Virus record (IMG/VR): IMGVR_UViG_2531839200_000011
Location: 1-7,066 of that record
DNA: 7,066 nucleotides
Source of the DNA: a virus
Taxonomy: Duplodnaviria > Heunggongvirae > Uroviricota > Caudoviricetes
Direction: 5' to 3' (one strand)
Under the pieces are notes generated by a model. That model was not told the DNA's origin and did no database searches. It saw only the letters and a list, made by a program, of their open reading frames with translations. Shown here piece after piece: positions 3,513-4,712 of the stretch (positions are counted from its first letter, which is position 1; each line of letters begins with the position of its first letter). The position numbers and the translations under genes are program-made.

Positions 3513-4283
3513 ATGGAAACCGTATCTGACGCACTGAAAGCACTGAAAAAAGCCTCTTCACATGTGGTGGCAGCTCGCCTTGGAATCAGTCGTGAAGAGG
3601 CTGTCAACGAGCTGTGGGAACTCAAAATAAATGGCGTCGTTGATAAAACTGGTCACACCTGGTTTCTGGCTGGCGAAGGTGAATCCCGGGTAACCGAAGA
3701 GCGGCCAGTAAAATCTGAAGCACAGGATATGCTGACCGGGGAGGTCGAACAAAAAGTTACCGCAGACATGATGATTGAGTTTATCGGTCAGGATGGGGCT
3801 AAAACGTGTGAGGAACTGGCGGGTAAGTTCGGTGTCAGTACTCGCAAGGTTGCTTCCACGCTGGCGGTGGTAACCGCAACGGGGCGGCTGGCACGCGTTA
3901 ATCAGAACGGTAAATTTCGTTACTGCATGCCGGGCGATAATTTACCAGCAGAGCCGAAAGCCGCGCTGGTAACGGAAAGTGATGGTAAGGCCTTTCCTCA
4001 GCCAGCAGGTGCTGCGTTACCAGTCCGGGAAGCCGCAACACAGGAAGAAATTAAAACAGAAACTGTGGCGGACATTGTGCAGCCGTTGCCATCGTTTACC
4101 GAAACGCAAGCAGATGAGCTGATTTTTCCGTCCCTTCGCAGGGCAAACCTGGCGCTGCGCAGGGCGAAAAGTGATGTTCAGAAGTGGGAGCGAGTCTGCG
4201 CCGCGCTGCGGGAGCTGAACAAGCACCGGGATATTGTTCGACAGATTACTGATTCTTCCCGCCGTGTTGTATCGGAAAAGTGA
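3513..4283 (+). CDS. Hypothetical prophage protein (256 aa) with two predicted winged-helix-like modules and a basic/coiled C-terminal segment
   Basis: GGAGG 8 nt upstream of the ATG and a long open frame. Two internally similar segments, ...[25 protein letters not shown]... and ...[29 protein letters not shown]..., are followed by an acidic linker and [20 protein letters not shown]. Confidence 0.7.
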   Translation: [256 protein letters not shown]

Positions 4284-4298
4284 TTGCCGGAGGCGCTT

Positions 4299-4712
4299 AT
4301 GGCAAAAGTATTTACACAGGAAGAGCGGGAAAAAATTAAAGGGCAGGTTGTTGAGCTAGTACGCCGGAGTGGGCGCGAGACGTTACGGCAACTGGAAGCC
4401 AAGACAGGTGCGACAAGATATCTGATGAGCGTTCTTGCCAGAGAGCTGGTTGCCAGTGGCGATGTATACAACTCTGGTTACGGGTTATTCCCATCTGAAC
4501 AGGCTCGTAAGGACTGGCAAAACGCCCGCAAAAAACTATCGAGGGCAAAACTGAAGAAACCGGTTGTGGTTGATCCTGACCTTATCTGGTCATTACCAGA
4601 CGGAGAAATACGCCGCTATGACAGGCAATTGAACATAATTTGTAGTGAGTGCCGTAACAGTGAAGTGATGCAGCGAGTTTTGATATTTTACACAGGAGTA
4701 ATGATGGAATAG
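4299..4712 (+). CDS. Hypothetical prophage protein (137 aa) with one winged-helix-like module related to those in the upstream gene
   Basis: ATG at 4299 with GGAGG 6 nt upstream, 15 nt after the previous stop. The segment VVELVRRSGRETLRQLEAKTGATRYLMSVLARELVASGDV follows the same pattern as the upstream modules. The track start at 4284 would overlap the upstream stop. Confidence 0.65.
   Translation: MAKVFTQEEREKIKGQVVELVRRSGRETLRQLEAKTGATRYLMSVLARELVASGDVYNSGYGLFPSEQARKDWQNARKKLSRAKLKKPVVVDPDLIWSLPDGEIRRYDRQLNIICSECRNSEVMQRVLIFYTGVMME

Follow-up and report, generated by a model that had tools for sequence, protein, structure and literature searches.

What are the two small genes that close the replication operon of a lambdoid phage, and are they one thing or two? 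We asked this of a 7,066-nt stretch of DNA from a tailed-phage record (IMG/VR IMGVR_UViG_2531839200_000011, positions 1 to 7,066; hereafter the window), in which a 256-aa product (ORF A) and a 137-aa product (ORF B) are encoded downstream of a DnaC-like helicase loader. The original prediction, made from the sequence, described them as an unknown pair in the ren/nin position, sharing three winged-helix-like modules that would represent a duplicated DNA-binding module split across two co-transcribed genes.

Catalogued prophage genes at the end of a replication operon

Genomes of Escherichia coli O157:H7 contain the window at 100% identity, within a lambdoid prophage. Its early-right operon, with all features discussed here on the plus strand, runs from a YdaS/Cro-like gene and a YdaT/CII-like gene to an O/DnaD-like replication initiator (1536..2738; phrog_1701, E 1e-148), the DnaC-like helicase loader (2745..3491; IstB_IS21, E 4e-19; phrog_50, E 3e-83), ORF A (3513..4283) and ORF B (4299..4712). 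The initiator gene contains iteron-like repeats at 1826-1867 and 2082-2134. A gap of 21 nt separates the loader gene from ORF A, which begins with an ATG at 3513, 8 nt downstream of a GGAGG, and ends with a TGA at 4281-4283. The junction with ORF B (4281..4298) comprises this TGA and 15 nt containing a second GGAGG (4289-4293), and is followed by the ATG at 4299; ORF B ends with a TAG at 4710-4712. This tight spacing in one direction is consistent with the proposed co-transcription, and no promoter, terminator or Rfam element was found within or between the two genes. ORF A and ORF B close the replication operon; their GC content resembles that of the remaining phage, unlike that of the low-GC island downstream of ORF B, and the adjacent DNA carries clear morons, namely a low-GC hydrolase gene and hok/sok.

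Neither protein is an unknown. In RefSeq and in the identical O157:H7 genomes ORF A is annotated as DUF1627 (WP_000450992.1) and ORF B as DUF977 (WP_001151233.1), and our searches place them in the DUF1627/YdaW and DUF977/LygF/Ren-like families, respectively. ORF A matches Pfam PF07789 (E 1e-98, 328 bits against a cut-off of 28.1), with model positions 1-155 of 155 aligned to residues 91-245, and phrog_630 over profile positions 1-252 of 253 (E 2e-132). ORF B matches PF06163 over model positions 1-131 of 134 (E 4e-27; 95.5 bits, cut-off 22.1) and phrog_142, the 'Ren-like exclusion protein' (E 4e-45). A search of NCBIfam returned no model for either protein. Among complete E. coli genomes, ORF A-like DNA is present in 51% and ORF B-like DNA in 75%, and a single genome can contain as many as nine matches of the DUF1627 type and five of the DUF977 type. 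Both are thus common, already catalogued E. coli prophage genes, and the pair is an ordinary one.

Three related winged-helix domains

AlphaFold2 models of both proteins, read with DSSP, display the canonical winged-helix topology (H-S-H-H-S-S) in all three modules at pLDDT 82-95. ORF A consists of a first winged-helix domain (wH1), a disordered linker, a second winged-helix domain (wH2), a long acidic disordered linker and a C-terminal helical domain. In wH1 (residues 4-52, 3522..3668; pLDDT 86-93) the elements are helix 4-11, strand 13-15, helices 16-23 and 27-39, and strands 43-46 and 49-52. The linker at residues 56-79 is predicted to be disordered, and about 30 disordered residues part wH1 from wH2 (residues 84-138, 3762..3926; pLDDT 82-88), which is built of helices 84-94, 99-106 and 110-123 and strands 127-131 and 134-138. 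The C-terminal domain (residues 200-255, 4110..4277; helices 208-237 and 239-255, pLDDT 83-96) is basic (pI 10.8), with a conserved DELIFPS-type motif ahead of its two long helices. The winged-helix domain of ORF B (residues 7-64, 4317..4490; pLDDT 90-95) has helices 7-24, 29-36 and 40-53 and wing strands 57-64, and is followed by a basic helix (residues 67-86, 4497..4556; pI 11.1). The alignment behind the ORF B model was shallow, and confidence is low in the C-terminal half of the model.

Alignments of 58 and 149 ORF A homologues conserve the wH1, wH2 and C-terminal blocks alike, wH1 being the best conserved part of the DUF1627/YdaW family. Nearly invariant residues are P193, D201, L203, P206, R216, R217 and R233, and the family phrog_1888 combines wH1 with an ORF A-type C-terminal domain, without wH2. 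The C-terminal domain may serve in oligomerisation or partner binding. By computed charge, the third helix of wH1 is acidic (pI 4.5), wH2 is basic overall (pI 9.2) and in its third helix, and the helix of ORF B is likewise basic; nucleic-acid binding is a prediction from these charges. R111 and S115, which open the third helix of wH2, are kept in at least 90% of ORF A homologues, and the third helix of ORF B differs between alleles while the remainder is conserved.

The kinship of the modules emerges from profile comparison. Pairwise BLASTP gave E 0.46 for module 2 against module 3 and no match of module 1 to either, and a sequence search of the PDB returned nothing significant, with weak winged-helix hints to ADAR1 Z-alpha, MntR and DDRGK1. 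Using profiles of diverse homologues, hhalign aligned wH1 with wH2 at a probability of 93-96% (E 2e-7 to 4e-9), wH2 with the ORF B domain at 96% (E 1e-9 to 7e-9) and wH1 with the ORF B domain at 58-94% (E 1e-4 to 2e-7). The final values for the ORF B domain were obtained with a DUF977 profile deepened by diverse sequences from distant loci; at Neff 1 the DUF977 alignment reached no better than P ~0.002. The modules aligned with the ORF A C-terminal domain, as negative controls, at E 0.05 or above, and 100 column shuffles per pair never came near the observed scores of 36-45 (mean about 9, maximum 17). Within ORF A, residues 84-137 are also matched by phrog_142, the profile of the Ren family (E 2e-5). 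The N-terminal half of Pfam DUF977 alone matches at E 2e-12, and a 2009 study, which also places fusions to Fic domains in DUF977, had used HHpred and COMPASS to assign this half of the family to the winged-helix fold (PMC2686095). PDB matches found by Foldseek for ORF A and ORF B are nearly all winged-helix proteins, at modest E-values (2e-4 to 0.1), and those of the ORF B domain are GntR, MarR and ArsR proteins.

Profile alignment shows that the three winged-helix domains are homologous to each other and that wH1 and wH2 of ORF A are paralogous. The prediction of three winged-helix modules over the two products holds up in formal profile alignment (hhalign E 1e-9 to 2e-7) and in the AlphaFold topology. 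They are about as closely related as winged-helix families are in general; given this and the frequent occurrence of the genes apart from each other, the further notion of a duplicated module divided between two genes was overstated.

ORF B as the counterpart of lambda ren

ORF B and lambda Ren (96 aa) fall into the same PHROG (Ren against phrog_142, E 1.6e-41). The two have in common an N-terminal winged-helix domain and a C-terminal ECRxSxxMxRVLxxY motif, which in ORF B reads N-I-I-C-S-E-C-R-N-S-E-V-M-Q-R-V-L-I-F-Y (residues 112-131, 4632..4691, within the low-confidence part of the model). Over this motif, lambda Ren residues 73-92 are 50% identical to ORF B by BLASTP (E 2e-5), and E117, C118, R119, S121, M124, R126, V127 and L128 are invariant in the ORF B/Ren alignment. 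The position agrees as well: ORF B, like ren, is the last gene of an operon for an initiator and a helicase loader, ren following P in lambda. ORF B is, by sequence homology, this phage's counterpart of lambda ren, in line with the original placement of the genes in the ren/nin position.

The differences are nonetheless considerable. ORF B is only about 27% identical to lambda Ren overall and 41 aa longer, Ren being without a segment of about 40 aa that contains the basic helix. The loader is of the DnaC type with ORF A between it and ORF B, whereas lambda has a P-type loader and carries ren alone. The Rex-resistance phenotype and the RexA/RexB two-hybrid data belong to lambda Ren. Among the viral models of BFVD, Foldseek found for ORF B only weak winged-helix matches of a generic kind and did not recover lambda Ren. 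DUF977/LygF proteins of Salmonella and Rac-type phages also occur as winged-helix-only forms of 86-88 aa in Enterobacter and Pantoea; ORF B is a long form with the Ren motif.

ORF A as a full-length YdaW

The closest named relative of ORF A is YdaW (b1361) of the K-12 Rac prophage, 55% identical to residues 1-154, a range that covers both winged-helix domains. Each gene directly follows a DnaC-like gene (ydaV in K-12). The K-12 YdaW is a truncated allele of 186 aa without the conserved C-terminal helical domain, whereas ORF A is the full-length form; the DUF977 gene downstream of ydaW was lost in K-12 through the Rac deletion.

The top Foldseek matches of the ORF A model are tandem winged-helix structures, namely DIP2311 (3lmm), the SelB C-terminus, ESCRT-II, ScpB and UFL1/DDRGK1 (E 2e-4 to 2e-3). 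This is a structural match at 10-19% identity, with no partner or genomic context in common, and the two domains of ORF A, parted by a disordered linker, form no rigid pair.

Two independent families that are often neighbours

Across related loci the two genes usually stand together. In 69 of 78 loci DUF1627 is immediately followed by DUF977, and in 58 of 74 it is immediately preceded by a DnaC-like gene; the gene directly before DUF977 (85 loci) is DUF1627 in 63, an O-type initiator in 17 and a DnaC-like loader in four. Even DUF1627 homologues of only about 30% identity are followed by DUF977, immediately in Salmonella and at a distance of up to about 200 nt in Enterobacter and Pantoea, where in two loci a small called ORF lies between. 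The association is far from obligatory: phage genome records with both genes, with DUF977 only and with DUF1627 only number 12 each. This occurrence of one gene apart from the other counts in part against the original prediction. These co-occurrence counts are drawn from closely related prophages and do not represent independent events. A DUF977 pattern scan of genome contigs, with patterns that were too strict, recovered only Escherichia, Shigella and mis-binned MAG contigs. An ORF B 100% identical to that of the window, with a DUF1627 neighbour, is found beside at least three different O alleles, which match the O-like initiator of the window at E 1e-270, 1e-118 and 1e-7.

Could the pair nevertheless be one functional unit, an ancestral gene with three winged-helix domains that was split by a stop codon and now acts as an obligate heterodimer or through TGA read-through? 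The layout invites this reading, with both ORFs in the same frame and a single TGA and 15 nt between them. The same frame is shared in 57 of 63 related loci, adjacency prevails in most Escherichia-type loci, and rare fused ORFs, P0002 (TGA to GGA) and P0004, occur in metagenome data. The same-frame loci are, however, close relatives, so the frame was inherited rather than selected independently; each fused protein represents a single-member cluster, and ORF B is provided with a strong Shine-Dalgarno sequence and an ATG of its own. Either gene is often present where the other is absent, as in lambda with ren alone; in Salmonella and Enterobacter the two lie in different frames, and in Enterobacter a small gene intervenes as well. 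A split gene or read-through is therefore largely ruled out and highly improbable: DUF1627 and DUF977 are two independent families, often neighbours, and not one gene split in two.

A possible accessory role in phage replication and its rivals

What do the two proteins do? The likeliest role of both, at somewhat short of even probability, is that of accessory factors, themselves not essential, in the replication module of the phage. They would bind the replication complex, or nucleic acid close to it, through their winged-helix domains; the basic wH2 and the acidic wH1 suggest one nucleic-acid contact and one protein contact in ORF A, so that wH2 would touch nucleic acid and wH1 protein, and the C-terminal helices could make ORF A multivalent. 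The outcome would be that phage replication is tuned, or hidden from abortive-infection sensors such as RexAB and retron toxins. In lambda, ren, O and P are co-translated, ren is described as 'likely involved in DNA replication', Rex excludes ren mutants, and suppressors of exclusion map to O and P (bioRxiv 10.1101/2021.04.19.439022); two-hybrid assays showed interactions of RexA and RexB with both Ren and O (same source and its supplement). On the side of ORF A, ydaW was recovered in a genome-wide overexpression screen for blockers of the retron-Sen2 toxin RcaT, a result obtained by overexpression of the truncated K-12 allele and reported with no mechanism (bioRxiv 10.1101/2020.06.22.160242). 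Taken together, the identity of ORF A and ORF B, their place in the operon and an accessory role make up a reading that we judge evenly balanced.

A counter-defence function is possible, as is the regulatory or exclusion function put forward in the original prediction. The more specific proposal, that ORF A and ORF B form a conserved counter-defence pair tied to the replication module, whose winged-helix domains would shield the complex or DNA intermediates from RexAB-like and retron sensors, seems doubtful to us. An accessory or counter-defence role has to reckon with the fact that the Ren phenotype is that of a distant lambda protein without the basic helix. Moreover, the PADLOC defence models yield only weak winged-helix noise, with partial matches of ORF A to the winged-helix parts of Csa3/CARF (E 0.005-0.009) and no match for ORF B or lambda Ren, and winged-helix domains are found just as typically in common transcription factors.

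Indeed, the two proteins might be ordinary sequence-specific winged-helix transcription factors acting on phage (nin or late) or host genes, which we regard as unlikely but still the most serious competitor of an accessory role. All Foldseek and Pfam side-matches are DNA-binding domains of the MarR, GntR, ArsR, DeoR, IclR or Crp type, the basic third helix of wH2 opens with the conserved R111 and S115, and the allele-variable third helix of ORF B is what would be expected if DNA specificity changes; YdaW itself is listed as a putative E. coli transcription factor with a MarR-type domain (PMC9308461). Against this, the third helix of wH1 is acidic, the search beside the two genes for palindromic or repeated motifs gave no operator candidates, and the conserved place of the genes is the end of the replication operon rather than beside a divergent promoter. 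Lambda Ren is not known to regulate transcription.

Exclusion of superinfecting phages by a lysogen-benefit (moron) module that does not aid the phage's own replication appears improbable, even though phrog_142 is filed under 'moron, auxiliary metabolic gene and host takeover' and the genes adjoin clear morons. ORF A and ORF B belong to the lytic early-right operon and have no detected promoter of their own, so a repressed lysogen should express neither; they have phage-like GC and no PADLOC match, and lambda Ren shields the phage itself from exclusion and causes none (bioRxiv 10.1101/2021.04.19.439022). The analogies with iteron-binding initiators and with partition or condensation factors have fared worse, and ORF A as a tandem winged-helix factor that binds an origin or organises DNA (an iteron Rep, ScpB-type or partition protein) is very improbable. 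Tandem winged-helix proteins do head its Foldseek list, including ScpB (3w6j_E, E 1.5e-3), and the adjoining O-like gene has iteron-like repeats. Yet Pfam shows no Rep-family match (at E 0.1 or below) or ParB match, initiators of the RepE, RepA and pi type are absent among the top 50 Foldseek PDB matches, and wH1 and wH2 are joined by a long disordered linker and not packed together. The phage already encodes an O-like initiator, and the variety of O alleles beside an identical ORF B with a DUF1627 neighbour argues against coupling to a cognate origin. For partition or condensation the ScpB match stands alone, and neither the window nor 19 kb of flanking DNA contains a gene for an SMC, ScpA or ParA partner.

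Implications

The main gain is at present one of annotation: 'DUF977/LygF' can now be read as 'Ren homologue' and 'DUF1627/YdaW' as 'tandem winged-helix protein with a C-terminal helical domain'. Study of the two families could give lambda Ren a function. If the proposed accessory role is true, it would help to explain how lambdoid phages replicate in hosts with abortive-infection systems; and if shielding is true, lambda Ren would, over 40 years on, gain a mechanism, and the two genes would define a 'replication-shielding' anti-defence family present in most E. coli genomes.

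Results

The two adjacent genes that the original prediction had taken to encode unknown proteins both belong to named families, and the functions of the two proteins are putative. ORF A (3513–4283, plus strand, 256 aa) matches Pfam DUF1627 at 328 bits, as well as phrog_630, and is 55% identical over residues 1–154 to YdaW of the E. coli K-12 Rac prophage, a truncated allele by comparison, which is encoded directly 3′ of the DnaC-like gene ydaV. ORF B (4299–4712, plus strand, 137 aa) matches Pfam DUF977 and phrog_142, the ‘Ren-like exclusion protein’ family that also holds phage lambda Ren (E 2e-41). 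Lambda Ren and ORF B have a C-terminal ECRxSxxMxRVLxxY motif in common (BLASTP E 2e-5), whereas Ren lacks an inserted segment of ~40 aa containing the basic helix; in effect, ORF B is Ren plus this segment. The 1.4 kb spanning both genes matches many E. coli O157:H7 chromosomes at 100% identity; there, the products are annotated as ‘DUF1627 domain-containing protein’ and ‘DUF977 family protein’ in a lambdoid prophage. Both families are already catalogued and extremely common in prophages, and for at least one of them a winged-helix fold is already published: DUF977 was assigned it in 2009 via HHpred and COMPASS (PMC2686095).

The pair ends a co-directional series of plus-strand genes comprising a YdaS/Cro-like gene (288–497), a YdaT/CII-like gene (481–906), an O/DnaD-like initiator (1536–2738) and a DnaC-like loader (2745–3491). 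Separate GGAGG ribosome-binding sites precede ORF A and ORF B, the spacing is 21 nt from the DnaC-like gene to ORF A and 15 nt from ORF A to ORF B, and no promoter-like or terminator-like sites were found within either ORF or in the gap between them. Up to ORF B the GC content is ~52%, falling to 31–37% beyond; the low-GC island immediately 3′ of ORF B (4713–6200) carries an alpha/beta-hydrolase gene (5064–5837, minus strand, phrog_8493) and resembles a moron insertion at the ren/nin boundary. Further downstream lies a hok/sok locus (6273–6597) with a hokD-type toxin ORF (6385–6597, Hok/gef E 1.5e-22) and sok antitoxin RNA (6273–6447, Rfam RF01794, 105.6 bits). Within the O-like gene, iteron-like AAGGGGCTT repeats (1826–1867 and 2082–2134) adjoin a GAACAG-rich stretch coding for a QEQE linker; the phage origin probably lies here, as in lambda O. 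Upstream, two ORFs overlap on opposite strands and match curated families of different databases: 869–1429 (plus strand) matches phrog_8304 (E 6e-120), and 1113–1568 (minus strand), the one annotated by RefSeq, matches NCBIfam NF033230 (‘ECs1072 family’). One of these families was probably built on shadow ORFs.

The pattern of three winged-helix modules, two in ORF A (wH1 and wH2) and one in ORF B, is real and statistically solid, although pairwise BLASTP did not detect the modules as similar and diverse homologues were therefore gathered. Only 153 of the 1.84 billion cluster representatives searched were DUF1627, making this a small family, and one that appears to be mostly enterobacterial; the profile search recovered Enterobacter, Salmonella and Pantoea homologues at 25–45% identity, and the diverse DUF977 set was drawn from loci encoding distant DUF1627 homologues plus lambda. 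Profile–profile alignment related all three pairs: wH1 to wH2 (probability 93–96%, E 2e-7 to 4e-9), wH2 to the ORF B module (96%, E 1e-9 to 7e-9) and wH1 to the ORF B module (58–94%, E 1e-4 to 2e-7). In each alignment the register held from helix 1 through to the wing. Observed scores were 36–45, against a mean of ~9 and a maximum of 17 in 100 column shuffles per pair, and control comparisons of any module with the ORF A C-terminal domain gave probabilities of at most ~1% (E ≥ 0.05). Independently, the PHROG Ren-family profile matched ORF A residues 84–137 (E 2e-5).

Structure prediction likewise bore out the expected folds. The ORF A model, built from 149 sequences, has two canonical winged-helix domains (residues 4–52 and 84–138, pLDDT 82–93), disordered linkers (56–79 and 145–199) and a C-terminal pair of long confident helices (208–255). 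Its best PDB matches were DIP2311, SelB, ESCRT-II, ScpB and UFL1/DDRGK1, which have tandem or multiple winged-helix domains; MarR and Z-alpha domains came next. ORF B is predicted to form a confident winged-helix domain (7–64) and a basic helix (67–86), with low confidence over its C-terminal half; its PDB matches, at weak E-values, were to winged-helix domains of the GntR, MarR and ArsR types.

wH1 and wH2 are clearly paralogous. A shorter PHROG family, phrog_1888, has wH1 and the C-terminal domain without wH2, suggesting an origin of wH2 through internal duplication or insertion. The ORF B module is related to wH1 and wH2 at a comparable level, and generic winged-helix families (Crp, PafC, FeoC, DeoR, HTH_24) also match each module at E 1e-3 to 1e-5, so a sister relationship across the two genes specific to these modules is not established. 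One NCBI partial protein of 277 aa (P0001) carries a 38-aa internal tandem duplication inside wH2, either genuine or an assembly artefact.

The two genes recur next to each other across genera, yet each also occurs alone. In the phage genome collection both genes were found in 12 records, adjacent every time in the order DUF1627–DUF977, while another 12 records hold DUF977 alone and 12 hold DUF1627 alone. Directly 5′ of DUF977 in DUF977-seeded IMG/VR loci lay DUF1627 (63/85), an O-type initiator (17/85) or a DnaC-like gene (4/85); conversely, DUF977 came next in 69 of 78 DUF1627-seeded loci. DUF1627 homologues ~30% identical occur both with and without DUF977. A 132-aa DUF977 form directly adjoins DUF1627 in Salmonella, while in Enterobacter and Pantoea an 86–88-aa, winged-helix-only form lies ~200 nt 3′. 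DUF1627 occurs without DUF977 in a second Salmonella lineage (after exonuclease VIII), one E. coli lineage and PPompW phages (after a lambda-P-like gene); lambda and phage HannyBb have ren/DUF977 without DUF1627. In one metagenomic lineage a 104-aa Rrf2-type winged-helix protein (L189, 4236–4550, E 1e-13) replaces DUF977, and the small winged-helix protein in this position may be replaceable by another family. Of 5426 complete E. coli genomes, 2767 carried ORF A-like DNA and 4094 carried ORF B-like DNA. Linkage is therefore recurrent across genera and not obligatory, the counts being phylogenetically non-independent.

Prophages of Enterobacter and relatives also carry a 74–76-aa Cys4 zinc-ribbon ORF after DUF1627 (L180 4668–4898, L187 4177–4407, L189 4553–4783, L184 4229–4453), in some loci, including two from Enterobacter, between DUF1627 and the short DUF977. 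Of three copies tested, two matched the Lar restriction-alleviation family weakly and below threshold (E 0.002), a hint that the locus collects anti-defence genes. Elsewhere, a DUF1627 gene in PP818812.1 (Actinobacillus phage vB_Apl-pPE4, 10084–10806; recorded host Actinobacillus) is 78% (protein) and 84% (DNA) identical to the E. coli gene, an unexpected closeness in a Pasteurellaceae phage that points to either recent transfer or mislabelling of the host.

Discussion

ORF A and ORF B share a reading frame and are parted by a single TGA (junction 4281–4298), an arrangement seen in 57 of 63 related loci, and two single-member metagenome proteins are fusions (P0002 and P0004), one through a TGA-to-GGA change and one through a frameshift. 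A split gene is nevertheless unlikely. Read-through was rejected as the meaning of the shared frame, which we treat as inherited, because the two genes are in different frames in Salmonella and have another gene between them in Enterobacter.

From operon position, charge and conservation, and published work, we tentatively infer a role for both proteins as accessory factors of the replication module. The pair sits distally in replication operons irrespective of the O allele: a 100% identical ORF B with a DUF1627 neighbour occurs beside O genes matching that of the window at anything from E 1e-270 to 1e-7, while the DnaC-like gene remains similar. wH2 is basic, as is the ORF B helix; helix 3 of wH1 is acidic, and the ORF A C-terminal domain is helical and conserved. 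In lambda, O, P and ren are co-translated; ren reportedly accompanies all initiator and helicase-loader modules. Rex excludes ren mutants, with suppressors in O and P, and RexA and RexB interact with Ren and O in two-hybrid assays (bioRxiv 10.1101/2021.04.19.439022). In a genome-wide screen, ydaW blocked the retron-Sen2 toxin RcaT (bioRxiv 10.1101/2020.06.22.160242). The main rival is that the pair acts as an ordinary winged-helix transcription factor, a rather doubtful reading. YdaW has been listed as a putative MarR-type transcription factor (PMC9308461). An iteron-initiator or partition role is unlikely, and so is an exclusion module of benefit to the lysogen. As accessory factors, the two proteins would act by binding to the replication complex or to its nucleic acid, either modulating the complex or shielding it from abortive-infection sensors.

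At the level of annotation, our analysis adds that DUF977/LygF is a Ren homologue, that DUF1627/YdaW combines tandem winged-helix domains with a helical C-terminal domain, and that the two families are often neighbours but can occur apart.
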